The translations under genes and the position numbers were made by a program. A stretch of DNA of 64,000 bases from Eledone cirrhosa (taxonomy: Eukaryota). Under the pieces are notes generated by a model. The model ran no database searches. It saw nothing but the letters and a program-made list of their open reading frames with translations, and had not been told where the DNA came from. Shown piece after piece: positions 11,801 to 64,000 of the stretch (position 1 is the first letter of the stretch; the number at the start of each line of letters is the position of its first letter). The DNA lies in assembly GCA_964016885.1 (NCBI GenBank), contig OZ024741.1:311240001-311304000 (forward strand), written 5' to 3'.

Positions 11801-12010
11801 GATAATGCCACCCACACCCAGCGCATCAGCAAGGAATCTTACTTCATTAACAAATACGGACCCCGTCTAAACACTTCTCCCTAAGACGAACCCACAACAT
11901 ACACACGTCAACATACATATCTACATCAGCACACATCTCTACCCACATATAAACACAATGACATACGTAAACACACATGCTCTATGGTGCAACACAAACA
12001 AATATATGTG

Positions 12011-12043
<33 letters not shown>

Positions 12044-12240
12044 AGTGAATATATGTGTATCTATATATGTATATATAGTGAATATCATTTCACACCTTTT
12101 ATTGTTAAGATTTTTGATGTTCTATTAAGAGAACCGATTTTACTGAAAAAATCGAATAATGTACACCATTTTACCAGGGGGAAAATACTGGTCCACCCAC
12201 ACACACACACACACATTCTAACACACACACACACACACAC

Positions 12241-12272
<32 letters not shown>

Positions 12273-12428
12273 GCGTACATTAATATACAAAGAGACTTAT
12301 ACACACACACACACACACTTCTCCGTATAAGACAAAAGCTGAAAAACATCTTTTGACATGCTAAAATACCCCCCACTGCTTACAGACACATTCCTACTGA
12401 CCATCCATGCTACCACGAATTACTCTGC

Positions 12429-12430
<2 letters not shown>
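8897..12430 (+). mobile_element. Penelope-like element (Neptune-type), frameshifted RT + GIY-YIG
   Basis: LLSKGLKFTPT, IKEADKGS, TFDVVKLYSNIP, GTAMGT, RYLDDCF, FLDI, YYKPTD, CASENLIYVLTCSGC..YIGQT. Confidence 0.93.
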
Positions 12431-12496
<66 letters not shown>

Positions 12497-12889
12497 TATA
12501 TATGTTTGCGTGCGTGTGTCTGTGTGTGTAAATGTGATGTTTAATATAGAAATCGCTGCTACAGGACTAGAATTATTTCATCCAAAGAAATCACCAGGAA
12601 ACGGCTTTCCTGGTGATTACTTTTGAATGAAATAGTTCTAATACTGTAGAAAGCATGTCTATATTAAACGTGATATTTACACCCTACATTGTCATTTGTT
12701 CCATACTTACACTGGTTACCTTCGATTGAAACCGGGATTAATATATATATATATATATATATATGTGAATATAGACATAGAATATTCGAAAATATTCTGT
12801 ATGTTTATAATAAACATTTTGAAGACCTAATCGCTATAGAATAGAATACGTCACGTATTACAATTAGATTCTCGATAAAAGCAAGGGAA

Positions 12890-12932
12890 GTAATCTACGC
12901 GTTTCATTCTTATTAGAAATCTTCAGGACTAC
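12890..12932 (-). ncRNA. Minimal type I hammerhead ribozyme (family B)
   Basis: Reverse complement of gtagtc CTGAAGA tttctaataagaat GAAA cgcg TA gattac. Confidence 0.88.
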
Positions 12933-13199
12933 ATATCCAGTGCTTTTATCGAGAATGACACAGCTAGAGACTTATAGAATACTTAGCTGTGTACAGGAAC
13001 TGGTTTGAAAGAGCGGTTGCCGGTCCGGCAGAAATTAGAAATTGGAATAAATGCTCTGAAATAGCGATATATATGTGAATATAGACATAGAATATTCGAA
13101 AATATTCTGTATGTTTATAATAAACATTTTGAAGACCTAATCGCTATAGAATAGAATACGTCACATATTACAATTAGATTCTCGATAAAAGCAAGGGAA

Positions 13200-13242
13200 G
13201 TAATCTACGCGTTTCATTCTTATTAGAAATCTTCAGGACTAC
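13200..13242 (-). ncRNA. Minimal type I hammerhead ribozyme (family B)
   Basis: Identical to the 12890-12932 copy. Confidence 0.88.
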
Positions 13243-13505
13243 ATATCCAGTGCTTTTATCGAGAATGACACAGCTAGAGACTTATAGAATACTTAGCTGT
13301 GTACAGGAACTGGTTTGAAAGAGCGGTTGCCGGTCCGGCAGAAATTAGAAATTGGAATAAATGCTCTGAAATAGCGATATATATGTGAATATAGACATAG
13401 AATATTCGAAAATATTCTGTATGTTTATAACAAACCAGTTCCTGTACACAGCTAAGTATTCTATAAGTCTCTAGCTGTGTCATTCTCGATAAAAGCACTG
13501 GATAT

Positions 13506-13548
13506 GTAGTCCTGAAGATTTCTAATAAGAATGAAACGCGTAGATTAC
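13506..13548 (+). ncRNA. Minimal type I hammerhead ribozyme (family B); predicted cut after GUA at 13542
   Basis: Stem I gtagtc/gattac, CTGAAGA, stem II ttct/agaa, GAAA, palindromic ACGCGT stem III. Confidence 0.88.
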
Positions 13549-13815
13549 TTCCCTTGCTTTTATCGAGAATCTAATTGTAATGCGTGACGTATTCTATTCT
13601 ATAGCGATTAGGTCTTCAAAATGTTTATTATAAACATACAGAATATTTTCGAATATTCTATGTCTATATTCACATATATATCGCTATTTCAGAGCATTTA
13701 TTCCAATTTCTAATTTCTGCCGGACCGGCAACCGCTCTTTCAAACCAGTTCCTGTACACAGCTAAGTATTCTATAAGTCTCTAGCTGTGTCATTCTCGAT
13801 AAAAGCACTGGATAT

Positions 13816-13858
13816 GTAGTCCTGAAGATTTCTAATAAGAATGAAACGCGTAGATTAC
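13816..13858 (+). ncRNA. Minimal type I hammerhead ribozyme (family B)
   Basis: Identical to 13506-13548, 310 bp downstream. Confidence 0.88.
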
Positions 13859-13980
13859 TTCCCTTGCTTTTATCGAGAATCTAATTGTAATACGTGACGT
13901 ATTCTATTCTATAGCGATTAGGTCTTCAAAATGTTTATTATAAACATACAGAATATTTTCGAATATTCTATGTCTATATT

Positions 13981-14028
<48 letters not shown>

Positions 14029-14269
14029 TCCCGGTTTCAATCGAAGGTAACCAGTGTAAGTATGGAACAAATGACAATGTAGGGTGTAAATATCACGTTT
14101 AATATAGACATGCTTTCTACAGTATTAGAACTATTTCATTCAAAAGTAATCACCAGGAAAGCCGTTTCCTGGTGATTTCTTTGGATGAAATAATTCTAGT
14201 CCTGTAGCAGCGATTTCTATATTAAACATCACATTTACACACACAGACACACGCACGCAAACATATATA

Positions 14270-14313
<44 letters not shown>

Positions 14314-14469
14314 GCAGAGTAATTCGTGGTAGCATGGATGGTCAGTAGGAATGTGTCTGTAAGCAGTGGGGGGTATTTTAGCATGTCAAAAGATGTTTTT
14401 CAGCTTTTGTCTTATACGGAGAAGTGTGTGTGTGTGTGTGTATAAGTCTCTTTGTATATTAATGTACGC

Positions 14470-14501
<32 letters not shown>

Positions 14502-14698
14502 GTGTGTGTGTGTGTGTGTTAGAATGTGTGTGTGTGTGTGTGTGGGTGGACCAGTATTTTCCCCCTGGTAAAATGGTGTACATTATTCGATTTTTTCAGT
14601 AAAATCGGTTCTCTTAATAGAACATCAAAAATCTTAACAATAAAAGGTGTGAAATGATATTCACTATATATACATATATAGATACACATATATTCACT

Positions 14699-14731
<33 letters not shown>

Positions 14732-14931
14732 CACATATATTTGTTTGTGTTGCACCATAGAGCATGTGTGTTTACGTATGTCATTGTGTTTATATGTGGG
14801 TAGAGATGTGTGCTGATGTAGATATGTATGTTGACGTGTGTATGTTGTGGGTTCGTCTTAGGGAGAAGTGTTTAGACGGGGTCCGTATTTGTTAATGAAG
14901 TAAGATTCCTTGCTGATGCGCTGGGTGTGGG

Positions 14932-15514
14932 TGAATAAATTTTGATTTTTTCTTATCGGTAATGTTGTTAAACCATCTTATTGCTTCATGAGTGTTACCC
15001 CAAAGTTTAATCTCTACTTTAACCTTAACTTGGGGGATAATTCTGTCTAGTATATATTTGCTAATTTTACCTATATCAGATTTAGAGGGGCATATAAGTC
15101 TAATATTAGGGTTAGTATCGAAGTTTACCTTGTGGTCCTTCAGGTTGAAGGATGGTATAGCTGGTATTAAGGGTTGCGTTCTATCGTCAATACAAAGTTT
15201 TTTAACAATATCACATGCCGATTTGTTGATGTTTTTAAGTGTGGCTTCATTAGTTTTCCTGTATTTTTTATGCAATTCCTTACGGATGAAGTTGTTGTAA
15301 GTGTCCACATCCATGGTATATACGTTTGATGTTTTGTCTGCTCTAACAATAACTCCATTGGCGTTTTTTAGATTATTGAGCAGTGCCGTGATGTCATTCT
15401 GTAGTTTATTGTTCTTACGTTTTGTAAATTTGATCTCCATGATCATATCCATTAGGTCTTGTTCAAATGCATCCAGAAGTGGGTTTGAGGGTGGGTTCTT
15501 GTAAGATTTAAATC
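14932..15514 (-). mobile_element. Inverted copy of the 5' part of the adjacent Naiad-type element
   Basis: 14932-15432 is the reverse complement of 15515-16015 with one substitution seen; 15433-15514 adds upstream FGFKSYKNPPSNPLLDAFEQDL. Confidence 0.93.
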
Positions 15515-18310
15515 CAAATTTACAAAACGTAAGAACAATAAACTACAGAATGACATCACGGCACTGCTCAATAATCTAAAAAACGCCAATGGAGTTATTG
15601 TTAGAGCAGACAAAACATCAAACGTATATACCATGGATGTGGACACTTACAACAACTTCATCCGTAAGGAATTGCATAAAAAATACAGGAAAACTAATGA
15701 AGCCACACTTAAAAACATCAACAAATCGGCATGTGATATTGTTAAAAAACTTTGTATTGACGATAGAACGCAACCCTTAACACCAGCTATACCATCCTTC
15801 AACCTGAAGGACCACAAGGTAAACTTCGATACTAACCCTAATATTAGACTTATATGCCCCTCTAAATCTGATATAGGTAAAATTAGCAAATATATACTAG
15901 ACAGAATTATCCCCCAAGTTAAGGTTAAAGTAGAGATTAAACTTTGGGGTAACACTCATGAAGCAATAAGATGGTTTAACAACATTACCGATAAGAAAAA
16001 ATCAAAATTTATTCAGTTCGATATTGATGAATATTATTCCTCAATTTCACCTGATACTCTACATGAAGCTCTTTTGTTCGCTAAGGATAATTCCGACCTT
16101 ACGGATGCTGAAATTAAAATTATTATGGAAGCGAGAAAAACTATAGTTAAATTCGATGATAGCTACTGGGTTCGCAAAGATAGACCTTCTAATTTTGATA
16201 TCACTATGGGTTCTAATGATTCGGCGGAAGTAACAGATCTTGTGGGAATTTATATCACCCACAGATTACAAGGAAAATTCAAGGATCTCCACGGTGGAAT
16301 TTACCGTGACGATGCGCTCCTATTAGTTAAGAATATGAATAACCAGAATTTAGAAAGGATGCGTAAAAATATCAGAAAACTTTTTAAAGAACTAGGATTA
16401 AATATTACATTTGAATATAACCTCAAAGAGGTCAATTTCCTTGATGTTACTTTCAATCTCTATACAGATACGATTAAACCGTTCCATAAACTAAATGAGA
16501 ACCTTAAATATGTAAATACGAGTTCTAACCATCCACTCTCTATAATTAAATCCATCCCTAGAAATGTTTCTCTTAGAATCTCCCGCCTATCGTCCAACCA
16601 ACAAACCTTCAAAGAACATGCCGAGTATTATGATGATGCACTTAGGAAAGCCGGTCACCTAGATAATATAGAGTATATAGTCAATGATCACCAAAACACC
16701 CAAAATAAATCACATAGGAGTAGAAATAGCACAAAATCACCACCATACATACACTACCGCAATAGACACAATAATAGTCGCACACCACCAAACAGAAGGC
16801 GATGTAAGGAGTATATCTGGTACAACCCGGTCTATAACAAATCTATTAAAACCAATCTACCCTCAAAATTCTTTCGATTAGTTAGAAAACACTTTCCAAC
16901 ATCACATAAATATAATAAAATCTTAAACCCTAACACCATCCGACTTTCATATTCAACCGCCCCTAATATTGAACAACATATAAAAATGCTTAACGCAAAA
17001 CGGTTGTATAAACGCCTTCCAACACATAACAATACACGTAAAACATTAGCTATAACATCACAAAACAACAAACAACATCCTGTCCTACATAAGCAACCTC
17101 ATCAACCCATCCATGGCAATACAACAACGCAAAATTGTAATTGCAACTGTGTCCAACCAGGAATGTGTCCGTTGAACAATCAGTGTCTTGAACGCAACAT
17201 CGTATACAAATGTACTATCGAATCGGATAGACAGAAGTGGTACTATGTGGGATCTACAGCCACCTCCTTTAAATCACGCCTTTATAGACATCGTTATTCG
17301 ATAAAACATGAAAACCAGCGTTATGTAACAACACTCGCAGACAAGGCTTGGCAGCTGCGTGAAATTAACCAACAATTTCACCTAAAATGGGATATAATAG
17401 CAGCTGCCCCCCCATATTCCAATGGACAGGAATTTTGTAGATTATGTAATGTAGAATTATTTTGTATTATGAAATCCAAAAACATTTTATTAAATAACAG
17501 AATAGAGCGATCGTTATACTGTAACCATCGCTTAAAATCTACATTTTCATATTATAAATACTACCAGGATTGAACGCCTGTCTCTATCCCCGTTTGATTG
17601 TCAAAATAGATATGAACATTCTTTATTAGTCTTAATTCTATCAACTCTTCTATTATTTACCTTTTAATACAAACTGCTATAGATAAAATGAGATTTCTGA
17701 TTTTTTGATTCAATTCCCTAGTGCAAATACCAGCTGACTACTAGCATTGATATTATTTAGTAGCAATCGAAATCTCCCCCTTCCCCAATTGACACTTTAT
17801 GATAAATACTACTGCACCAGATGACCAGCCCTGTCCACTGTCCAGTTGGTCAAGTAGAGATTAAAATCGGCACTCCCAAAATTCTTATTTAGATTTACTC
17901 ATGGTATTCTCATTAAAAACCCATTATATACTTGTTTAGCAGTAAATTATTTTACCATCTGTCATATTCTATCCCCTCTGTTCCTTCCTCTTTTACTAAT
18001 ATAAATACTTCAATTTTTCTGATTTTATCCAGTTTATCCAAAATCTCTGAAGAAGTGACAACTGATTATACATTTGCTATCGAATACTTGCTAACATTAT
18101 ATGATTACGCAAGCAGCGATACATAGGTATTCGGTCTGTTACAGAAACATATGTCAATACCTAATAAATTCCTTTTTTAACAAAAGCACTTTCATTTTAT
18201 ATTCATCCTTTCTACATTTCTCCGGAATATAATTTATACTCGTTGAGCAAACCTGCACGTACGCTGTTCATCTCTAACGTAACGATATATTATCACTACA
18301 TTATTGATAA
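15515..18310 (+). mobile_element. Young 5'-truncated Penelope-like element (Naiad-type)
   Basis: Intact RT + GIY-YIG ORF, AT-rich 3' UTR with HHR-like core (18047-18155), ends at a TA tract. Confidence 0.92.
15633..17573 (+). CDS. Penelope-like reverse transcriptase / GIY-YIG endonuclease polyprotein (frame open from ~15516)
   Basis: 646 aa with no stops: FIQFDIDEYY, MGSNDSAEV, GIYRDDA, FLDVTFNL, CNCVQPGMCPLNNQC, NIVY..YYVGST, CRLC, CNH. Confidence 0.93.
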   Translation: MDVDTYNNFIRKELHKKYRKTNEATLKNINKSACDIVKKLCIDDRTQPLTPAIPSFNLKDHKVNFDTNPNIRLICPSKSDIGKISKYILDRIIPQVKVKVEIKLWGNTHEAIRWFNNITDKKKSKFIQFDIDEYYSSISPDTLHEALLFAKDNSDLTDAEIKIIMEARKTIVKFDDSYWVRKDRPSNFDITMGSNDSAEVTDLVGIYITHRLQGKFKDLHGGIYRDDALLLVKNMNNQNLERMRKNIRKLFKELGLNITFEYNLKEVNFLDVTFNLYTDTIKPFHKLNENLKYVNTSSNHPLSIIKSIPRNVSLRISRLSSNQQTFKEHAEYYDDALRKAGHLDNIEYIVNDHQNTQNKSHRSRNSTKSPPYIHYRNRHNNSRTPPNRRRCKEYIWYNPVYNKSIKTNLPSKFFRLVRKHFPTSHKYNKILNPNTIRLSYSTAPNIEQHIKMLNAKRLYKRLPTHNNTRKTLAITSQNNKQHPVLHKQPHQPIHGNTTTQNCNCNCVQPGMCPLNNQCLERNIVYKCTIESDRQKWYYVGSTATSFKSRLYRHRYSIKHENQRYVTTLADKAWQLREINQQFHLKWDIIAAAPPYSNGQEFCRLCNVELFCIMKSKNILLNNRIERSLYCNHRLKSTFSYYKYYQD

Positions 18311-18315
18311 CCTGA

Positions 18316-18350
<35 letters not shown>

Positions 18351-18352
<2 letters not shown>

Positions 18353-19227
18353 AGGTGTGACAGAAAAGTTCCAGGACTGATGTCACAAAAGATTTATTTC
18401 AAACCCAAACTTCACACTTAGAGGTTTCTCCTTCAAGGTAAACCCCTGGAGTATGTAACTGTAACCTTAGCTCTCTGCAGCGATCAAACGTTTTTCTTCA
18501 TAATTTTATATACATGTCCTCTGTCTCAGGTCGTCAAGCAATGAGCACAGAGTAACGAACAGACTTGAAGTTTCTGGTACGGTTGGGGAAAACTCCGCTG
18601 CAGCAAGTGTATGGAGATGAGACGATGTCACACTCACGTGTTTTTGAGTGATGAAAGAGGTTTAAAGAACGACGCGAGGACGTGGAATATGACCCCATAG
18701 CGGAAGGCCCTCAACAACCAGGACTGAGGTCAACGTCAAGCACGTCAGGCAGATGGTGCGTAGCGATCGTCGGCTGACTGTTCGACTGATGGAAAATGAG
18801 CTGGGCATGGATCGGGACAGCGTCTGGAAGATTCTCACTGAAGATTTGGACATGCGGAAAGTCTGCACGTAGATGGTGCCAGAAGGGTCGACGCATGCAA
18901 GTGTGCCAGGACATCCTTGAGCATCTTGAAATCGAACCAGACTTTCTAGGGACAGTCATCACTGGTGATGAGTCATGTATCTTCGAGTACGACCCGGAGC
19001 GTACCCGTTCTGAAGACGTGGACGACTTCTAAAAGGCCGTGAGGACGGAACTGCGGTGGATCCCGGAAGAATCCTTCAAGGAGTGCATGCAAGCGTTGCA
19101 GAAAAGGATGGAAATGTGCATTAGACTCCAGGGGGATTACCTTGAAGGAGAAAACTCTTAGTGTGAAGTTTGAGTTTGAAATAAATCTTTTGTAACATCA
19201 ATCCTGCAACTTTTCTGACACACCTCG
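18351..19227 (+). mobile_element. Internally deleted mariner DNA transposon
   Basis: ~65-bp TIRs (gaggtgtgacagaaaagt.../...acttttctgacacacctcg) flanked by TA; relics SGRPST, LDMRKV, ITGDES..EYDPE, GDYLEG; most of the DDD core is missing. Confidence 0.93.
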
Positions 19228-19249
19228 TATATATATATATATAAATAAA

Positions 19250-19635
19250 TATACACGGGTGTGTATGATTGTGTATTGAATTTTATATTAATAAAAGGAA
19301 TTCCAACTTTGTCTGATTTACTCGTTTTATTTACAATCCTTTAAAATTATAATGATATTATAATGAAATAGTATGGTGGAATATTATATGTTAAGTGTTA
19401 ATTGAACAAGTACTTTCCTGCTTTCGCAATCTTCAGGTTCATAATCATTGGTGACAATCAAGTTTGCAATTTTTAACTGTGAAAAACAGTTGAAAATTGC
19501 AAACTTGCCTGTCACCAGTGAAATTAACACTTAACATTTAATATTCCACCATACTATTTCATTATAATATCATTATAATTTTAATGGATTGTAAATAAAA
19601 CGAGTAAATCAGACAAAATTGGAATTCCTTTTATT
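19250..19635. mobile_element. Second copy of palindromic HHR element (family A); right-arm HHR deleted
   Basis: Homologous to 1399-1735 and 1126-1322; centre at ~19483. Confidence 0.8.
19403..19441 (-). ncRNA. Minimal type I hammerhead ribozyme (family A), intact core
   Basis: Minus strand: tgaac CTGAAGA ttgcgaaagcag GAAA gtac TT gttca. Confidence 0.85.
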
Positions 19636-20062
19636 TATATATATATATATATATCAAAGTTAATGTTGTTGATACAATGACATGTCTCTTTACAATCTGA
19701 CCAAATTTTCCTGCTCGACATTCTTAAATTATCAGTAGAGGTAATAATGTTGCAGATATCCATATTTACATACATGCATAAATGAGATAACAATTATACA
19801 ATTTTATACCATATCAATATTTTTGAGATTATGACAAACGAATGAAACTGAATACGACTATTGAATAATATATCGATATACTACATGAAACAGGGAGATT
19901 ATATTTGAATATAATGTTCCGAAAACATATGGAAGTAACAATCAATATAAGTAACAAAATTACATTCACAAATATTAAAACTTTTACACTACTTATCAGT
20001 TTCTGCGTTATTTATCACTGATATTCTTACATTTAACGACAATAAATAAATTTATATATATT

Positions 20063-20590
20063 AGAATTGGCGCTCTGAAATAGCGATATATAAATGAATG
20101 TATATATAGTGTATTTTGCAATACACTGCATGCTTAATTAAAAGCATTTCGAAGACCTTATGCTTTTGTATAGAGTAGTGACAGTCTCACTTACTTTAAA
20201 TTTTCAGCAAACAGGGGGAGATAAAGCTGACAGAGCTATGTTTCGTACTGATTGGTACTTATCAAAGCCAAGTACTCCACCTGTTTGCTGAAAATCATGA
20301 ATGTTTGATTCTTATAGAATTTCTAGTAATAATCAGGAACTGATTATACAGAGCGGTTGCCGGTCAAGCAGAAATTGAAAATTAGAATTGGGGCTCTGAA
20401 AGAGCGATATATATATATGAATGTATAAGTACCAATCAGTACGAAACATAGCTCTGTCAGCTTTATCTCCCCCTGTTTGCTGAAAATTTAAAGTAAGTGA
20501 GACTGTCACTATTCTAAAACAATAGCATAAGGTCTTCGAAATGCTTTTAATTAAGCATACAGTGTATTGCAAAATAGACTATATGTACAT
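20063..20590. repeat. Diverged sister of family B: ~320-bp unit, start of a second unit, then a fold-back
   Basis: Shares gagcggttgccggtc, ctctgaaatagcgatata, cttatagaat and caggaactg with 12760-13430; 20424-20590 is an inverted copy. Confidence 0.82.
20225..20269 (-). ncRNA. Type I hammerhead ribozyme with U3-A8 core (family B2)
   Basis: Minus strand: ggct TTGATAA gtac caatca gtac GAAA ca tagctc tg TC agct. Confidence 0.82.
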
Positions 20591-20623
20591 TTATATATAT
20601 ATATATATATGTATATATATCTA

Positions 20624-20761
<138 letters not shown>

Positions 20762-20841: not shown

Positions 20842-23285
20842 CAACGTTTCCTAACGGTGGGCGATTCTAACTGTTGTAACCGAAAAGAAAATGGTAGTTA
20901 ATTGGAAAGTTATGTGGACGATATGGGATTTTGAGTATGATGGTGTTATAACATATCTTACCCGAAAAAGATATTCAAAGGCGATATGCAAAGAATCCGA
21001 TTAACAAAACTGGATGCAATGTGAGGAACAAATTACTAGATCAGATGTGAACAATCTCGGAAACAAGGGACATTTTGGTATTTTCTATAGTTTTAAGAAT
21101 GTTCAGTAACATTCAAATACTTCTTTGGATGACATATGTAACTTTTCTGATATAAATCAGGTAAGGGAAGACCAAGAATAACTTTTCCATTAAAATTATC
21201 AAATGACTTCAGAGAAAAATTGCCAACGCTAACACCGGTATCGCACATAAAATTGACACACGTGATGACCAGTAAGAACTATAACGACAGGCTGTAGACA
21301 AGGAAATGCAGACGACAATACCAGGCAAAATAAGAGAATCCCCAGATAGTAACTCAATCCGCATGATCATATAAACAGACAGCCATTTGATGTTGTTGGA
21401 TTGTATTGATCGGCAAATGATTGAAACTCTCTTGTCTTCTTGTATTTGTGGATTACTGACAATGGTCTTCCAGTAACAATATAACATATTGAACGAACAT
21501 TCCCTTATCTATTATTTCTCCAATTGTTTCAGTGTATTGTACTTTTTTAAACAACTCGATGTCGCCATTTAACAACATTTGTCGCCAATACAACATTATT
21601 ATTTTATGGGGTTATGACTTCACCACAGAGCATTCAACCAAACTTTAAGCAATGAAACGACCTTTGTCATCTTTCTGCTAACTTAAGGCCTCATTCGAAA
21701 AGCGTAAAATGTCGGAATTTCAGAAAGTAACTACGCTGCAAATAAGGTGACGATTGCGTCGTACCACACAACTTTACTGGCCGCAAAGGTCGGTACGTCC
21801 CACACTTTATGCAAAACATTATTTCCACTTTGCCTTTCATCCTTACGGGGTCGATAAAATAAAGTACCAGTAATAAACTGGTATAATTGCTGGCCTTGTG
21901 CCAAAAGTTGAAACAATTATTTCTACCTATTATTGAAGAAGTTCTCTCGACCTTAATGCATAAAAAATCACAGGCATAATTATTAAGATATTTCCATTTA
22001 GTGATAACAATTTCTCGTCGTACAGGTGAATAACTATCAATGTCCAAAATACTCTAATCCATTATCTCCCGAGTTCTGAATTGTTCATGCAATTTATCGA
22101 ACTAACAGTTGTAAGAAATAAATGCTTGATTATAATGTGTGTTGGTTTTTTTAAATGAACATATTAAAAAATTTGGATAGATGCTGTTTAGTGATCAATT
22201 GTTGATTGACCCAAAGGCACGTCTATTTTAGATTTATTAAAGCTATTTTGCAATGAGCATAATATTCACTGAACAATATTGCTGACTGTGCAATTGATAG
22301 AGGAGAGCGTATGTTTCATTAGGTAAATATAGAAGTTTCCCTTATCTCTTAAAACTACCTATATTATCTCATCCTGTTTCAATAGTCAATTCTGTCGTTC
22401 ACAGGCAGTAATTAGAGGCAAAAATAACGACGGTATGCTTTGATGATGTCCTGCAGTTAGTTGTTGAAACTGTGAACAAGCTAAAATCGAATTCTTTGTC
22501 TGAACAAAATTTCCGTCCACTCAGAATTGAGAATGGCGATGACTATGTGAGGCTTTTGTACCATACTGAAGTATGATGGTTGTCAAAAGTCAACTGTGTT
22601 GTCAATTTTGTCGATCTTTTTGCAAAAATATTTTTTAATAAACTCCACTATACAGTTCTCTGATTATTTCAAATTGTGATATTTTTTCCTAAGTGACTTA
22701 TTCGCAAAAGTAAATGGTCTCAAGATGTTATTGCATACAAAGTAAAATATGCTTTTCAACTGTAAATCGCCTCAATGCTTTCATTTCTAAAATAACACTA
22801 TATAAGATAAATGTTTCGGGGGAGGGGGGGGGGGATCATGTCCATCAATTTCAACGATTGAACAGATTGGAGGATGAATTAGTTTATGAGGATGTCATTA
22901 CATATCACAATTATTTGCTACCATTGCATGATGACATGGTACACCGATTTCAAGATATTATCGCATTGTCAATTCCAGTCTTGGATAACAACCCGTTTGA
23001 AGTTAGAGTAATCGATTGCAAAGTCTATGTGCATGACGAATTGATTTACAAAATGACAATGATGCCACAATGCGGTATCGGTTTTAAAGTAACCACGTCT
23101 TGTGGTATTATCAAAATATAGTGACATATTTTCAAAAGCTAATAAAAGTTGATAAAATATTGTTTTAAATGTTCAAGTTTGCTTTCATTTGCTGTTGCTG
23201 AGACTAAGTAAGTGACATAGCCACTACTTTAAAACTCATAGCGAATGGCCTTCAAAATGTTTTTAATTAAAGTTTCAGAGCACTG
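20842..23285 (+). mobile_element. Highly decayed hAT (Buster/Charlie-like) transposon
   Basis: Relics VVHRQ*LEAK and LLYHTEV*WLSK (~22390-22590); possible terminal repeat aaagtttcagagcactg. Left end uncertain. Confidence 0.7.
21740..21915 (+). mobile_element. SINE (tRNA-derived family; body with Nin-like domain)
   Basis: ctttgcctttcatccttacggggtcgataaaataaagtaccag...gctggccttgtgccaaaag, shared with 54870-55220. Confidence 0.78.
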
Positions 23286-31219: not shown

Positions 31220-31297
31220 AATTGCCTTGTCTGACGAACGAATGAGGGCGTTTCTTATATTCGTCTTATTCGAGAAACATCTGGTAATGAGGTAATT
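31220..31297 (+). ncRNA. Type I hammerhead ribozyme
   Basis: 11-bp stem I aattgccttgt/atgaggtaatt, CTGACGA, stem II cgaatgag/cttattcg, GAAAC atctg GTA. Confidence 0.85.
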
Positions 31298-45988: not shown

Positions 45989-46050
<62 letters not shown>

Positions 46051-46326
46051 CATACATATATATATATACATATATGCATTTAGAACTATTTCATTCAAAT
46101 GTAATAATCAGGAAAGCCGTTTCCAGATGATTAGTTTGGATGAAACTATTCTAGTCCTGTAGAAGCGATTTCTATATTTAACATCATATTTACACACACA
46201 AACACACACAGACACAGACACACGCAAACATATGTATATATATATATGTGTGTTTGCGTGTGTGTATATGTGTGTGTATGTGTGTGTGTGTGTGTGTAGT
46301 AAATACGTAACAAGTTTTTGATATAC

Positions 46327-46461
46327 CTTGTTATCAATTGTCACCAACATAACCTGCAGAACATCTATCTGACCATGTTCCATTTCGCTTGTCACAGTTA
46401 CTATTGTTGAGACAATCGCATGTCGCTATACAATTAACACCAAAGTTTCATATTCGGCCTT
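46327..46461 (-). pseudogene. Pseudogenised 135-bp EGF-like exon
   Basis: AG/GT intact; EGRI*NFGVNCIATCDCLNNSNCDKRNGTWSDRCSAGYVGDN**Q. Confidence 0.85.
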
Positions 46462-46646
46462 CTGAAGTATATATAAGATTTCTATATGAAACATCATATT
46501 TACACACACACAAATGCATGCACGCACACACCCGCACTCACCCACAGCCACACCCACAGCCAGACACACAAACACACACACGCATATATATGTATGTGTT
46601 GCGTATATAGTAATTATTGTAATTACGTAACAAGTTTATAATATAC

Positions 46647-46778
46647 CTTGGCAAGAGTCACCAATATAACCTGTAGAACATCCATCTGAACATGTTCCAT
46701 TTCGCTTGTCACAGTTACTATTGTCGAGACAATGACATGTCCTCTTACAACCTAGACCAAACATTCCTGCTGGGCATT
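46647..46778 (-). CDS. 132-bp phase 1-1 exon encoding an 8-Cys EGF-like repeat (MEGF/scavenger-receptor-F/RPTP-ectodomain type)
   Basis: tttcAG|..|GTatat; ECPAGMFGLGCKRTCHCLDNSNCDKRNGTCSDGCSTGYIGDSCQ. Confidence 0.88.
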
Positions 46779-47085
46779 CTGAAAATATCAATATATATGA
46801 TAATGTTGAAGATATCATTAATTACATACAAATATCAATGATACAATTTTATACCAAATTTTAAGATTAAAGTGATCTTGTGATAAACATATGAACTTGT
46901 TTACTTATTGAATATTATATAGATCCTCTATAATATATACATGGATGTTTAATTCAATTAAATGCAATGTTAAACACATTATGCAAGACACAAACCATAC
47001 CATAATAAAAATAATCATATCCTACAAAATCTTACCATATTCTAACAGTTCCTACGATATGTATTTGCGACATTCTTCCATTTAA

Positions 47086-47219
<134 letters not shown>

Positions 47220-47296
47220 TATATATAATATAGTGTATATATATAATATACGATATAGTGTATATATATAAATGCATACACACATACATACATACA

Positions 47297-47866
47297 TGGT
47301 GGTGGCTGCCAACTCGTTTTCGAGTACGGCCACTACTTTATATCCATGTAGGAGAACCCCCACCGATGCGCTGAACGAGTGTGAGTTTTTAGTCCAGCCA
47401 GCGACTTGAAAATTCTGGTACAAACACTACACTTGTGACAATTATTGACACATAGTGCTGGTCCTATGTTACCATGTGACGACAAGTGCAGAGAGATCTC
47501 CAGATATAAAGCAATATCTGTGTCGTGAAGCTTTTATAGTGAGCAAAGGCATTACACAAAGCCAGTCCCACTCTCTTAACCAAGATGATATTTACCAAAA
47601 AGAAGAACAAGTCAACATCATTGGATACCATCAGGGTTGCAGGTGTTATATCAGAGTTTTCCTTCTCCTAGAATTCTGCCTTGACAAAGGCTAAGGGGTC
47701 ATCTCTCCCGATGATTTTGGATGGCCATTGACTCTTAAGAGCGACTTTGCCCTTTGACAGCTTTTGTTTTTAGTCCTGCAGGATGTCCAAAGTCACCCTC
47801 CTCACCAAGAAACCTTGGTGGGGTTGCCAGTTTAGTCGCCAACGACCCGACCATGAGATAGGTTGT
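47297..47866 (-). mobile_element. Short non-autonomous RTE-derived element (5' UTR joined to 3' end) in a (TACA)n tract
   Basis: RTE 5'-UTR-like motif ctaggagaaggaaaactctga; 3' stem-loop actcg-aaaa-cgagt and (TATG)n tail; related 3' end at 58682-58730. Confidence 0.6.
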
Positions 47867-47894
47867 ACATACATACATACATACATACATACAT

Positions 47895-50800
47895 ACTTCA
47901 ACATTTGCAAAAACTTCTTGCGATTCAAGGGATGAACATTTCTTTTCTTTTACAACCTTGCCACCAGGAAGGATGGCCGGGTAAAAAAAATCTACTCGAA
48001 ATTAAGAGAAAGAGATAACTCATACATCAGTCAACGCGATCACTCGCATATTATGGCGTGGGAGACTATTTATTAAATTTAAGATGAATACTATCTCCGA
48101 CAGTAATGCCACAACAACGGCCAGGTTGAATAACTGGTTATTCTTCTAACTATCCCTTCTGAAAACACATTTTATTCAAATTCATAGAGATATCCAACTA
48201 AATACATAATTCATTTTACAAGGATTTGCTACAAACAGCATGGCTGAACACAATATTAACAACAAAATTAAGCAATTATCGAAGATAAATAACAAAGAAG
48301 GTAATCAAACTTTATTCAGTTGTAGCTACAGAAGAAACCGAAATTATAAATCATATTTCTCTTGGAGTTGTGAACTTAATAATGATTTATTTAATTGTTA
48401 TAAAATGGCAAAAAACAATCCCTCCATTGGCTATATGAATAGAATGAAACTACACTGGGACGAAATGCACCCAGAGCTAAATTATTTCACAGCGAAACAA
48501 TTAAGCCAACAAGCGACGTTTGTCGAACGTAAAAATAAGATAAATATTATTAATTGTATGTCCCCCACAACAAACATGGAAACAACAACACGTGCTACAG
48601 ATCGACATGCTACTAGCCCACCTAGCAGCCAGGTCGAACAGCGCCTTGAAACAACTATGCCTGTGAGAAACTTGACACCACCTGTACCATCTAAGTCTAC
48701 CTCGAATGCTGGGGAAAACACTATCGATAATAATAATAATTGAAGAAATAATAATAATAATCGAATAAATGTGACACCACGTATACCACCCGAGTCTACC
48801 TCGACTGTTATGGAAAATACTATCGATAATGATAATCAAAAGTATAAACAATTGAAAATGTCCTTCAACGAAATCTTTCAGAGAGAAATAAACTCATGTA
48901 TAAATATCTCTCTGGCTGAACGTGTTAAAATGACAATGGTGAATAAAAAATAAATAATGAAATAATACGTGTTATTGACGAAATAGGAGATGAATATTTA
49001 CGACGGATGAAAACCCCAACATATTGGCAAATCAACGCCTGTTCATATGCCTTAGCAACGACAGTGAAGCATTATCTTGGTGATAGCAGGGAGATTAACA
49101 AGAACAGAACACCACCAAAATACCATCATATATAACTAAAATAGAAAAAGAGATTGCTGTCCTACAAAACACAGGATATGTAACAATACTCCTTACATGC
49201 AAACAAACACAAAAGAACCTCACTCCTTACCAACAAAGAGTGAAAAATAAAATAGAGACGATGTTTGGTAACAGTAGAACCAGAACTCTCCAATATAAGC
49301 TGATCACCCTCAAACAAGAATTGAGAGCTGTTAGCGAAAAACGCCGATACCTGAAGAAGATAGATGAGAGAAAAATGCTTAATAAAAGATTCAGATGAAA
49401 CCAAACATCAGTCTATAGAGATATGAAGGGCAAAATAATAAGTGTCACTGAGGCCCCATCCCAGAAAGACATAGATTCCTTTTGGAGAAAAATATGGGGT
49501 GAAAAGAAGAATTTCAACCAAGATGCAGTGTGGCTGAAAGAAATCTGAAAGAACTATTGCTCCTACACTACAACAAAAACATACGAAATAAGTCAGGGTA
49601 CCCTTGAGACTGTGATAGGAAAACTCCAAGATAAGAAAACACCAGGAAGAGAAATGATTGTCGGCTACTGGTACAACAATCTGATATTCTATCGGAGGTA
49701 TCTTACTGACCTCTACCAACAAGTTCTTAAGAGAGATAAACTTATACCAGAATGGTTGACATTAGCACAAACGTTACTGGTCTCCAAGAACAAAGACATC
49801 CACTTGGCAAAATACTACCGACCCATTGCATGCCAGAACATGATGTATAAGTTGTATACAGCCTGCTTGAACCTATTCCTCCAAGATCACTGTGAAAATA
49901 ATAACATCATGACAGATGAACAAGTAGCTGGAAAGAAAGGGGATTGGTTATGGGCTGAATAACTCCTAATCAACAAAACTGCGATGTCGGAGGTGCTACA
50001 ACTTAGGAGGAATATAGCTACAGTCTGGCTGGACTACAGGAAATATTTCTATTCTGTTCCCCACTCTTGTAAGATAGAGGCTCTTCAACTTGCTAAAGTC
50101 CCAGCCATTATTGTCAGAGCCATAGAGAGGATGTCTTCTTCTTGGGCTACTATCCTAATGTTAAAGACAGAGAGGGGGGACTCTATTTTCACTGATAAAA
50201 TCAAATATTGCAGGGGTATATTTCAGGGGGACAGTCTCTGTGTGATATTATTCATATTGTCATTAGACCCCTTGTCCTTTCTGCTCAAGAATAGTGAGGA
50301 ATAGATCATTGGCCTAACTGTTTCACCGTATCTGATGAAGACTGCTACAGATACCTGGGGATAGATGACAACATATCCTATAATGGTATCTGTAATAAAG
50401 AACGCGAAATCACGGAATACTACACCCGATTAAGAAGATCTGGTAATCGGAACTCCCTGAACAAAACAAAACAGTGTCTCACAATGTGTTTGCTGTGTCT
50501 GTCCTAACACCAACGTTTGGAATACTCAATTGGACGATAGACGAAATCCGAGCAGTTGATATTGGAACTCGAAACATTCTAAAACACATTGGAAATGTCT
50601 ACATCAACAGTGACACAGACCGCCTTTACTTGAAACGTAAGCAGGGAGTCAGAGGCCTAACATCAGTCCAGACAACATTTGAATGTCGCATCATATCTCT
50701 CCGACAACATCTACGAACCTCGAAGCGTAGGAACCCGTTTCTCAAGCAATTCTCTCTGCATGAAACAGATAAGAGCATGAGAGTTGGGAGGAAACTCCTC

Positions 50801-59541: not shown

Positions 59542-61046
59542 TAAATACTGATATACGAGAAATTAGATACCACTAAAAAATATAGAAAGCACGGAAAAGA
59601 GGCAGCCATCGGATAAGAAGGCAACTATCCGGCGTCTAACACATCTGCTATAAAAAGCGGAGTCGGCCAAATCTATCATAGAATAGGGGAAGGGGTGGGG
59701 GTACTGAGGCTACAAAGGACCGAGGGGCTGCCTCGGGTGGGCGAGAAAGTAAAAGGACGACGACAAAGAAAGAGGACTGGAGTGGAAGGACTAGGGTGGG
59801 ATGGGGGAAGAAGGAAATATAGAGGAAGCGATAAAAAGATATAAAAGAAGATCTTACGTCTACCTTTGCAAACAGAGGTTACCCATTACAAAATCGGCAA
59901 GTGGGGTGTTATAGCCCTAGTCTCCCCCCCCCCCCCCCCGGTCATTATGGGGTTTGAGGGCGAGGTAAGTACTACGAAATTTTGTTTACATGCAGTTACC
60001 AGTTCATCTCTCTTGTTTAGGAGTTGGTCCGTCGAAAACAACATTTGTAAAGTTTCCTCCGAGCATAAATTGCACGGAGGGCGTCCTCCCGTGTGTGTGT
60101 GGGAGGGGGGGGGGATTCTGAATTAATTTTCAGTATCAAATTTTACGTATACTTCGTACGAGCATTTATGTAGTTTGCACTAGAATTTTTGTATCGTGGC
60201 GGCACCCTTAGCGATACTATTAGTATTCTTTTTCGGGATTCTGAATTATTATTTCGTATTAGTTCATTTTTATTTGCACTGGGTGGTTGCTGGCCTTGTG
60301 CCTGGGTTAGAAATCTTTATTTCGTACCGGTCTCGGGACTCTGAATTATTATTTAGTGGTAGTTTCTTTAGACTTTTGGACACCCCACTTGTTGACACGT
60401 CACCGTAAGATATATTCGGTTGTTTACTTATACCTCTTAAAAGGGTCTCATTATAATTCCGTCCCACCTAGTAAACCTTTCTTTAGTCTAGCAGTACCAG
60501 TGAGAGACTTGATAGCTGTCCTTAGGTTATAGTAAACAGAAATTGTTTTTTTGTTTTTTTTAAATATTTAATTGTTTTTTAACACTCTCGGTATTTTTCT
60601 ATATATTTACCCCATATTGTTTTACTTATTGTTTTGACTTCCTTCCCCTCCCCCACCCTAGTATTTCTTTGACCTCCTGCCCAGCTGTAGTTGGGACTAT
60701 CAACGCACGACTGGGTTTCCTCCACCCGCTCTCCCTCTTTCTTCTACTGGCAGGTTCAGCTACCCCTTCCCTCCACAAATTGCCATGATAGAATTATTAT
60801 GTCTCAACAACAAATTTTTGACCCATCCTTGTGACAATCACTTTACCATATATGGAATTACCCCCTGAGAAGCTCGGCTATTCATATACCAGGATAAACA
60901 TTTTCATTTCGTCCAGAATTAGCCGTCGAAACGGCTTGACCTCAGCCGTCGGGGTCCTACTCGTTCCTATTACCCACTATACTACCCTAAGTATTGAGTA
61001 CTTCGGTTCGTTATGGTCCACCTGGTTCCTTACCACATTTCCTTCG

Positions 61047-61048
<2 letters not shown>
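59542..61048. mobile_element. Naiad pLTR copy with first ~550 bp inverted; HHR at 60860-60955 (+)
   Basis: 59542-60093 is the reverse complement of ~44472-45020; 60092-61048 matches 45030-45988. Confidence 0.9.
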
Positions 61049-61129
<81 letters not shown>

Positions 61130-61397
61130 CATACATATATATATATATACATATATGCATTTAGAAATATTTCATTCAAATGTAATAATCAGGAAAGCCG
61201 TTTCCAGATGATTAGTTTGGATGAAACTATTCTAGTCCTGTAGAAGTGATTTCTATATTTAACATCATATTTACACACACAAATACACACAGACACAGAC
61301 ACACGCAAACATATGTATATATATATATGTGTGTTTGCGTGTGTGTGTATGTGTTTGTGTGTGTGTGTAGTAAATACGTAACAAGTTTTTGATATAC

Positions 61398-61532
61398 CTT
61401 GTTATCAATTGTCACCAACATAACCTGCAGAACATCTATCTGACCATGTTCCATTTCGCTTGTCACAGTTACTATTGTTGAGACAATCGCATGTCGCTAT
61501 ACAATTAACACCAAAGTTTCATATTCGGCCTT
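61398..61532 (-). pseudogene. Duplicated pseudogenised EGF-like exon
   Basis: Same sequence and stops as 46327-46461. Confidence 0.85.
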
Positions 61533-61717
61533 CTGAAGTATATATAAGATTTCTATATGAAACATCATATTTACACACACACAAATGCATGCACGCACAC
61601 ACCCGCACTCACCCACAGCCACACCCACAGCCAGACACACAAACACACACACGCATATATATGTATGTGTTGCGTATATAGTAATTATTGTAATTACGTA
61701 ACAAGTTTATAATATAC

Positions 61718-61849
61718 CTTGGCAAGAGTCACCAATATAACCTGTAGAACATCCATCTGAACATGTTCCATTTCGCTTGTCACAGTTACTATTGTCGAGA
61801 CAATGACATGTCCTCTTACAACCTAGACCAAACATTCCTGCTGGGCATT
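61718..61849 (-). CDS. Duplicated 132-bp EGF-like exon
   Basis: Matches 46647-46778 with intact AG/GT. Confidence 0.88.
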
Positions 61850-62154
61850 CTGAAAATATCAATATATATGATAATGTTGAAGATATCATTAATTACATAC
61901 AAATATCAATGATACAATTTTATACCAAATTTTAAGATTAAAGTGATCTTGTGATAAACATATGAACTTGTTTACTTATTGAATATTATATAGATCCTCT
62001 ATAATATATACATGGATGTTTAATTCAATTAAATGCAATGTTAAACACATTATGCAAGACACAAACCATACCATAATAAAAATAATCATATCCTACAAAA
62101 TCTTACCATATTCTAACAGTTCCTACGATATGTATTTGCGACATTCTTCCATTT

Positions 62155-62250
<96 letters not shown>

Positions 62251-62259
62251 CACACACAT

Positions 62260-62303
<44 letters not shown>

Positions 62304-62380
62304 TATATATAATATAGTGTATATATATAATATACGATATAGTGTATATATATAAATGCATACACACATACATACATACA

Positions 62381-62950
62381 TGGTGGTGGCTGCCAACTCG
62401 GTTTCGAGTACGGCCACTACTTTATATCCATGTAGGAGAACCCCCACCGATGCGCTGAACGAGTGTGAGTTTTTAGTCCAGCCAGCGACTTGAAAATTCT
62501 GGTACAAACACTACACTTGTGACAATTATTGACACATAGTGCTGGTCCCATGTTACCATGCGACGACAAGTGCAGAGAGATCTCCAGATATAAAGCAATA
62601 TCTGTGTCGTAAAGCTTTTATAGTGAGCAAAGGCATTACACAAAGCCAGTCCCACTCTCTTAACCAAGATGATATTTACCAAAAAGAAGAACAAGTCAAC
62701 ATCATTGGATACCATCAGGGTTGCAGGTGTTATATCAGAGTTTTCCTTCTCCTAGAATTCTGCCTTGACAAAGGCTAAGGGGTCATCTCTCCCGATGATT
62801 TTGGATGGCCATTGACTCTTAAGAGCGACTTTGCCCTTTGACAGGTTTTGTTTCTAGTCCTGCAGGATGTCCAAAGTCACCCTCCTCACCAAGAAACCTT
62901 GGTGGGGTTGCCAGTTTAGTCGCCAACGACCCGACCATGAGATAGGTTGT
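62381..62950 (-). mobile_element. Duplicated short RTE-derived element
   Basis: Copy of 47297-47866. Confidence 0.6.
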
Positions 62951-63007
62951 ACATACATACATACATACATACATACATACATACATACATACATACATAC
63001 ATACATA

Positions 63008-64000
63008 CTTCAACATTTGCAAAAACTTCTTGCGATTCAAGGGATGAATATTTCTTTTCTTTTACAACCTTGCCACCAGGAAGGATGGCCGGGTAAAAAA
63101 AATCTACTCGAAATTAAGAGAAAGAGATAACTCATACATCAGTCAACGCGATCACTCGCATATTTTGGCGTGGGAGACTATTTATTAAATTTAAGATGAA
63201 TACTATCTCCGACAGTAATGCCACAACAACGGCCAGGTTGAATAACTGGTTATTCTTCTAACTATCCCTTCTGAAAACACATTTTATTCAAATTCATAGA
63301 GATATCCAACTAAATACATAATTCATTTTACAAGGATTTGCTACAAACAGCATGGCTGAACACAATATTAACAACAAAATTAAGCAATTATCGAAGATAA
63401 ATAACAAAGAAGGTAATCAAACTTTATTCAGTTGTAGCTACAGAAGAAACCGAAATTATAAATCATATTTCTCTTGGAGTTGTGAACTTAATAATGATTT
63501 ATTTAATTGTTATAAAATGGCAAAAAACAATCCCTCCATTGGCTATATGAATAGAATGAGACTACACTGGGACGAAATGCACCCAGAGCTAAATTATTTC
63601 ACAGCGAAACAATTAAGCCAACAAGCGACGTTTGTCGAACGTAAAAATAAGATAAATATTAATAATTGTATGTCCCCCACAACAAACATGGAAACAACAA
63701 CACGTGCTACAGATCGACATGCTACTAGCCCACCTAGCAGCCAGGTCGAACAGCGCCTTGAAACAACTATGCCTGTGAGAAACTTGACACCACCTGTACC
63801 ATCTAAGTCTACCTCGAATGCTGGGGAAAACACTATCGATAATAATAATAATTGAAGAAATAATAATAATAATCGGATAAATGTGACACAACGTATACCA
63901 CCCGAGTCTACCTCGACTGTTATGGAAAATACTATCGATAATGATAATCAAAAGTATAAACAATTGAAAATGTCCTTCAACGAAATCTTTCAGAGAGAAA
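63008..64000 (+). mobile_element. 5' part of duplicated R4-like retrotransposon
   Basis: Copy of 47895-48888. Confidence 0.9.

Follow-up and report, generated by a model that had tools for sequence, protein, structure and literature searches.

A truncated copy of a high-copy hammerhead family in Eledone cirrhosa, likely a non-LTR retrozyme copied by Penelope machinery

Introduction

What kind of element left the insertion at positions 20061-20600 of this DNA, and how did it get there? The window, by which we mean the whole 64,000-nt stretch analysed, comprises positions 311240001-311304000 of its contig in a 3.0-Gb animal assembly (Eledone cirrhosa). Microsatellites are abundant in it, and it also holds several ORFs that we take to be those of Penelope-type retrotransposons, partly from sequence motifs and partly from domain matches: a Pfam search of the window ORF pieces gave a GIY-YIG match in one and no Pfam match in four others, and a 694-aa ORF lies near clusters with HTH_animal and GIY-YIG domains in the ESM Atlas. 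The original prediction presented the locus as a sister of a 310-bp unit in the same window (here B and A, respectively), with the same RNA scaffold under selection over the whole monomer, a different hammerhead, and shared motifs that might serve as promoter or reverse transcriptase (RT) recognition signals. We conclude with good confidence that the insertion is a truncated, dispersed copy of a high-copy hammerhead family, likely a non-LTR retrozyme copied by Penelope machinery.

Results and Discussion

Anatomy of the insertion

The insertion opens with one whole 322-bp unit B, runs on for 44 nt into a second unit and continues as an inverted 177-nt arm at 20424-20600, which bears out the expected unit of ~320 bp with partial repeat and fold-back. 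Every string quoted in the original prediction could be located (closing stem at 20201/20280 in B versus 12868/12941 in A; hairpins at 20109/20120 and 20130/20142). The features are as follows.

20061-20382, minus strand: full 322-bp unit B, the left, tailed arm, with its RNA 3' end outwards into (TA)n
20061-20093, minus strand: tail of ~33-35 nt between two fixed 3' ends, the putative RT start sites; edges blurred by AT repeats
20087-20108, minus strand: small AU/AC-rich stem-loop predicted at the tail-less end; one compensated pair in A
20109-20126, minus strand: 7-bp hairpin GTGTATT/AATACAC (20109/20120); two compensated pairs
20130-20147, minus strand: 6-bp hairpin ATGCTT/AAGCAT (20130/20142); one compensated pair
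20174-20195, minus strand: hairpin of the B and C subfamilies, not in register in A
20200-20215, minus strand: closing stem, 3' strand
20225-20269, minus strand: type I hammerhead, from descriptor search and alignment
20280-20295, minus strand: closing stem, 5' strand; 8 of 15 pairs double-changed in A, none broken
20351-20370, minus strand: conserved motif block, with a small hairpin and a 5-6-nt segment predicted to pair with the tail
20383-20426, minus strand: 44-nt remnant of the next unit, 5' end of the left arm
20424-20600, plus strand: right arm, inverted, its tail-less end in (TA)n; 3-nt overlap at the junction
20591-20662, no strand: (TA)n-rich target tract, right side
12741-14007, no strand: sister family A, 310-bp units in two head-to-head arms, with C3-G8 hammerheads

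The right arm begins within the hammerhead core, so the copy holds a single complete ribozyme, where the 'active' elements of Li et al. have two consecutive complete hammerheads; with its one intact hammerhead the copy is probably inactive. No ORF of at least 120 aa was found over unit B or the insertion, nor with it any ORF combining RT and GIY-YIG domains.

The hammerhead and its core

On the minus strand, B carries the hammerhead core UUGAUAA (U3-A9) at 20265-20259, followed by a 4-bp stem II at 20258-20245 and a 3-bp stem III at 20241-20230, with predicted cleavage after C17 of GUC at 20229. The helices quoted earlier on the plus strand are present, but the hammerhead itself reads on the minus strand. 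An Rfam search returned nothing at the gathering score, its sole match being HH9 at 17.1 bits (E 3.4). Stem III is a 12-nt palindrome; its sequence varies across subfamilies and is mostly still self-complementary, as dimer cleavage would lead one to expect. The core positions are near-invariant (169 copies), and the 3:8 pair is Watson-Crick in 95 of the first 100 listed among 2,907 pattern matches (67 U-A and 28 C-G, with 5 mismatched, by hand tally). When the core was masked and no more than 3 rows per cluster entered the tree, the U3-A8 copies all fell into one clade (support 97), itself nested among C3-G8 subfamilies. U3-A8 is a single compensatory event followed by radiation, and weighs as one event only. 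Ribozymes with U3-A8 stay active. The variant is already known from Penelope elements of Schistosoma in the available text of PMC4209133, and that of PMC7151607 gives no rate for it.

The hammerhead fold of the 20061-20600 copy lies 2.3 kcal/mol above the minimum (0.5-11.1 across representatives), and the antisense strand folds equally well or better in 8 of 11 sequences, so that folding energy cannot settle the strand. For comparison, the available text of a preprint on Xenopus reports in vitro cleavage for only 1 of 9 predicted retrozymes (bioRxiv 10.64898/2026.07.22.740005).

The hammerheads of A and B do occupy the same slot, the units being colinear and the ribozymes in register. As to the B hammerhead being a different one, its U3-A8 core does set it apart, but it is in register with that of A and linked to it through C3-G8 intermediate subfamilies, and both the alignment and these intermediates fit divergence by descent. 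The core plus stem II of A are identical at 26 of 28 nt to a Penelope terminal-repeat hammerhead, and so a hammerhead may also have been swapped into A.

Shared structure and covariation

A (310 bp) and B (322 bp) are colinear at 59% identity (190 of 324 columns), as befits the sister units that they had been taken for, and their folding z-scores are -4.84 and -5.25, respectively. When the pairs of B are compared in A, 37 are unchanged, 19 are double-changed and still paired, 3 are changed on one side and 16 are broken; eight of the double changes fall in the 15-bp closing stem, where no pair breaks, and 12 of the broken pairs belong to three B hairpins that have no counterpart in A (unit positions ~37-75 and 188-209). 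On a structure modelled on B, 25 pairs are double-changed, where shuffles gave 17.4±2.2 and slid controls 2-10; these figures are not to be read as probabilities, since the rows are related, which inflates the count, and B supplied the structure. When 12 units were aligned unguided, the ribozyme again came out in register, and unguided RNAalifold on this alignment found stems I-III and the closing stem; stem III was not recovered by RNAalifold on a 14-row alignment. These data support conservation of the RNA structure through compensatory changes, which affect the closing stem, hammerhead stems I-III, the 3:8 core pair and two of the 3' hairpins. To this extent selection on the monomer stands, but A and B have different 5' hairpins and also differ in the hairpin that comes after the closing stem, and with three hairpins unshared the phrase 'whole monomer' is too strong.

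Could the covariation have arisen at the DNA level, through quasi-palindrome correction or template switching that evens out the inverted repeats of a satellite or MITE-like element, while the RNA is under no selection? The signal is strongest in a perfect 15-16-bp inverted repeat and folding energy does not favour the hammerhead strand, both of which such processes would allow, but the 3:8 tertiary pair is compensated though it lies in no inverted repeat, and the unpaired core is kept between A and B in spite of their low overall identity. Moreover, stem I retains G-U wobbles, the tetraloop of the hairpin at 20109-20126 is GCAA in B and UUCG in A on the hammerhead strand (GCCA in C), and the unit has fixed 3' ends instead of terminal inverted repeats, all of which make this explanation very improbable indeed.

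Family size and subfamilies

The motif shared by A and B has 18,541 exact matches in the genome, against 0 for a reversed control; B/C-type hammerheads number at least 2,907 by a degenerate pattern, and the exact 30-mer of the 20061-20600 hammerhead occurs in 381 copies. Tandem units of 310-323 bp were found at many loci, within the unit size of non-LTR retrozymes (about 150-400 bp), and the type I hammerhead in each unit and the dispersed, high copy number are likewise those of that class. From 152 monomers with a readable core, drawn from the fetched loci, we obtained 16 clusters, comprising A, C (314 bp) and a series of B subfamilies, with a mean distance to the cluster consensus of 0.011 in A and 0.025 in the cluster of the 20061-20600 copy. 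Two or more cleavage sites are spanned by 19 of 82 B arms and 33 of 56 A arms, in a sample that leans to intact copies because the loci were picked by similarity searches. An assembly artefact is ruled out for the family, as raw DNA reads from another study cover the unit deeply and show opposite-strand joints; the junction of the 20061-20600 copy itself is unbridged by those reads. Runs labelled as two other organisms also carry pieces of A and B, where related species and mixed samples are indistinguishable. A further family, D (L013, L015, L114, L120, L103), is an abundant tandem hammerhead repeat of roughly 400 bp, also with a palindromic stem III.

Insertion ends, arms and tail

The chief clue to the mechanism is a feature absent from the original prediction, a Penelope-type tail. 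The arms have two fixed end positions, separated by about 34 nt and each followed by (TA)n. The 109 distinct insertions lying wholly inside the fetched loci comprise 68 head-to-head, 38 single-armed and 3 others, so that arms with their RNA 3' ends outwards account for 68 of the 71 multi-orientation insertions, and close opposite-strand pairs in an unselected list were head-to-head in 14 of 14 (hand count). The tail is found on exactly one arm in 55 of the 59 two-armed insertions with both ends classed (on neither in 3 and on both in 1; a further 9 of the 68 have one end unclassed), and two-tailed insertions are rare (p about 4e-9) after allowing for queries favouring tailed copies. TA-rich DNA adjoins 151 of 167 ends, against a background of 24%. 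An ORF-bearing Penelope element of the same genome, taken as a positive control, followed the one-tail rule in 9 of 11 pairs by script; inspection gave 11 of 12, since one of the exceptions proved to be paired wrongly with an internal repeat and a further locus was added by eye. The family thus has the head-to-head, 5'-truncated inverted copy, the one-ended tail of ~33-35 nt and the AT-rich or (TA)n target of a Penelope-mobilised element. Tail, inversion and (TA)n bias are given as Penelope features in the available text of PMC8557442 and PMC3846280, and in vitro, according to that of PMC11167929, the tail is bounded by two RT start sites, and the reaction needs RNA that extends past these. 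Our arm ends point to two such fixed start sites just upstream of the conserved motif.

Several steps can be proposed on this footing. Unit RNA, transcribed from the minus strand, would cleave itself, and a Penelope-like reverse transcriptase/endonuclease would insert copies into (TA)n tracts; the endonuclease would nick both target strands, each nicked strand would prime cDNA from one of the two start sites on a circular or uncleaved multimeric template, and the two cDNAs would meet at their truncated 5' ends and be joined there. Through the palindromic stem III, tandem hammerheads may cleave as dimers, and the motif just 3' of the tail may belong to an enzyme-binding stem-loop. A more specific version, which we offer tentatively and hold to be rather doubtful, has a dimer of Penelope RT copying one circular retrozyme RNA twice at once, rolling round the circle, with start points at the tail end for one active site and 34 nt upstream for the other, and with each strand of the cut (TA)n target priming one of them. 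Such a dimer would account for the single tail per insertion, for overlapping multi-unit arms with shared variants and for read-through of the cleavage site, and circles of 310-320 nt would then be minimal substrates defining the Penelope recognition stem-loop.

Alternatively, the second arm could be a DNA fold-back of the first by self-priming, as proposed for Penelope elements (PMC3846280, available text), with the tail-less end produced by annealing of the internal (AT)n to the target. The tail-less end does coincide with an internal AT tract in A and B, and arms within one insertion are closer to each other than to the average other copy in 54 of 56 cases, matching or beating the best other copy in only 29 of the 56. 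By length, the tailed arm can contain the tail-less arm in 28 of 55 insertions, but the tail-less arm is too long in 27, which disfavours a simple fold-back, and in 18 of the 55 neither arm contains the other. L072 is the only clean exclusion, as slippage between tandem units could rescue the others. In addition, 15 single-armed insertions have a tail-less end, and family C has the same end despite an interrupted internal tract. We consider fold-back quite improbable as the source of the second arm and retain separate priming of the two arms.

A pile-up of 5' ends near unit position 183-187, a candidate for RT stalling, is explained by search bias and palindromic junctions. The A array (window 11809-14933), one of only three tail-less two-armed insertions, has the tail at neither end and lies at the centre of a 99% perfect palindrome that duplicates ~930 bp of flank; fold-back duplication or an assembly effect could account for it.

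Template and Penelope partner

Of 167 arm 5' ends, about 5.8 were expected within 5 nt of the cleavage site and none was seen there, and 54 arms cover two or more cleavage sites; a cleaved linear monomer is therefore not the usual template, and a circle and an uncleaved multimer both fit. Shared machinery is suggested by two kinds of join: a 13-unit A arm is joined head-to-head to an internally deleted Penelope RT-bearing arm (L194:5265-9901, L055:1811-2870), and two B copies are joined directly to the family D hammerhead repeat (L195, L196). The Penelope family in the chimera, with about 30,000 RT candidates genome-wide, has tails of about 95 nt; the chimera itself seems tail-less at both ends. 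Among about 50 Penelope-linked loci and the window itself, no autonomous element had the unit's tail or motif, and patterns for tail variants likewise led to no partner. Two candidate partners were set aside on the grounds that their tail sequences are unrelated, namely this chimeric family and the Penelope family with the A-like hammerhead (tail of ~60 nt). A pair of inverted terminal repeats at 12519-12753 and 14013-14226 is 75% like those of the ORF-bearing Penelope family at L298 and L299, which has a hammerhead 26-mer with 9,561 exact matches and a tail of about 60 nt.

The units might then be solo Penelope terminal repeats (pLTRs), shed by an autonomous element and inserted from linear, uncleaved tandem transcripts with no circular stage, an account that departs from the favoured explanation in template and origin only. 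The autonomous element has an identical end signature, the hammerhead of A nearly matches that of a pLTR, as noted above, and a multimeric template likewise accounts for read-through of the cleavage site; in the anole system, moreover, unprocessed RNA is the main insertion substrate in the available text of PMC11167929. Against this, no ORF-linked copy of the tail or motif occurs among the loci examined, the unit closes on itself with predicted pairing between motif and tail, single arms carry arrays of at least 13 near-identical units, and hammerhead compensation is kept up through many subfamilies. An origin as solo pLTRs is accordingly possible but, in our judgement, unlikely, and we continue to regard the units as a retrozyme family copied by Penelope machinery.

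The conserved motif

Copies of the motif lie in the window at 20351 (B) and at 13011 and 13321 (A). Its distance from the tail end, on the 3' side, is 20-35 nt. It folds into a small hairpin, and pairing with the tail is predicted; the motif-tail pairs show no covariation. In the autonomous Penelope element the motif's position leads to the ORF start. Its place in the unit and in the autonomous element makes an enzyme-binding role plausible, and the motif may, as had been suggested, be an RT-recognition signal, a role that its position renders plausible. The motif is not invariant, a two-base change being found in an amplified subfamily. In a young 317-bp subfamily (L238-L240), a two-base change breaks the hairpin on the hammerhead strand, and the hairpin is kept through G-U pairs on the opposite strand.

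The other suggested function, a promoter, would make the motif block DNA in its action, with the AT tract as a TATA box and a start site near the tail end. In 13 of 14 representatives a TATA-like word does lie just upstream of the tail, and a pLTR TATA box has been proposed in the available text of PMC3846280, but family C has no TATA-like word, and A and B differ by ~6 nt in how far the motif lies from the tail end. A search for a Pol III B box found none in 14 of 14 representatives (loose A-box matches occur in 7 of 14), which speaks against a promoter of that kind and also against a tRNA-derived SINE. A promoter function, which would be compatible with an RT-binding role of the motif, seems to us unlikely, and binding of the enzyme is the role that we retain as plausible.

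Relation to known systems

The family resembles the non-LTR animal retrozymes of Cervera and de la Peña (2020), which the available text of PMC7229834 describes as non-coding tandems of 300-400 bp with a type I hammerhead per unit, highly self-paired, present in thousands of copies and coexisting with Penelope elements; family A shares with axolotl HHR_Amex2 a U-U mismatch at the base of stem II. Unlike those retrozymes, B has a U3-A8 core and a 12-nt palindromic stem III, and the inverted arms and tails that genome sequence reveals here are absent from that account, as far as its available text extends. Li, Clavereau and Pollet argue that retrozymes are non-autonomous Penelope-like elements (bioRxiv 10.64898/2026.07.22.740005); we share with them, in the available part of their preprint, the conclusion of Penelope dependence and the organisation in monomers, dimers and multimers, but their basis is co-occurrence and pLTR homology, mostly in vertebrates, and ours is the anatomy of insertion ends.

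Penelope and Poseidon elements, in the available text of PMC8557442, PMC3846280 and PMC11167929, likewise have partial tandems, an inverted 5'-truncated copy, an AT-rich target, a 30-40-bp tail that is often one-ended and RT start sites downstream of the hammerhead, whereas our unit has no ORF, carries a canonical instead of a minimal hammerhead within a long closing stem and forms arrays of many units. The Cercyon hammerheads of Schistosoma have the same U3-A8 variant, but are described in the available text of PMC4209133 as minimal and mostly single motifs; in B the ribozyme is of full type I, belongs to a tandem unit and has sister subfamilies with C3-G8 beside it in one genome.

In the papers and main preprint text covered, we found the A/B family nowhere described and no count of tails for insertions of retrozymes. 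As the class, the U3-A8 variant and the tail on one side have each been published before, the family is a well-resolved example and not a new kind of system; its membership of the retrozyme class is known ground, and it is the genomic evidence on insertion that is unusually clean. How retrozymes return into animal genomes is called open in the available text of the 2026 preprint (bioRxiv 10.64898/2026.07.22.740005), as is the formation of Penelope tandem and inverted ends in that of Craig 2021 (PMC8557442). To both questions the family brings a countable footprint, of two fixed putative start sites, one per target strand, common to it and autonomous Penelope, and its C3-G8 and U3-A8 cores on near-identical scaffolds constitute a natural hammerhead series for direct comparison.

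Other elements of the window

Several further elements lie near the insertion. A Penelope-type ORF at 15489-17573 is contained in an element at 14932-18320 with an inverted 5' copy, whose 3' region holds a hammerhead-like motif with a very long stem II near 18040-18165. Just left of the insertion, at 18325-19253, is a decayed element with 122-bp inverted ends, which from its look we presume to be mariner-like. Another hammerhead-bearing inverted repeat occurs at 19284-19641 and at about 1350-1740; its hammerhead is also found 3' of a GIY-YIG-type ORF in L271, which makes the repeat a probable pair of solo Penelope terminal repeats. At 23195-23271 there is a short piece of C-like unit (91% over 66 nt) without a hammerhead, and at 31231 on the plus strand there is a type I hammerhead-like motif with long stems I and II and a (TA)n tract ~150 bp downstream. 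Finally, the ORFs and microsatellites of 46000-48900 and 61000-64000 match, about 15 kb apart, and their likeness suggests a local segmental duplication.
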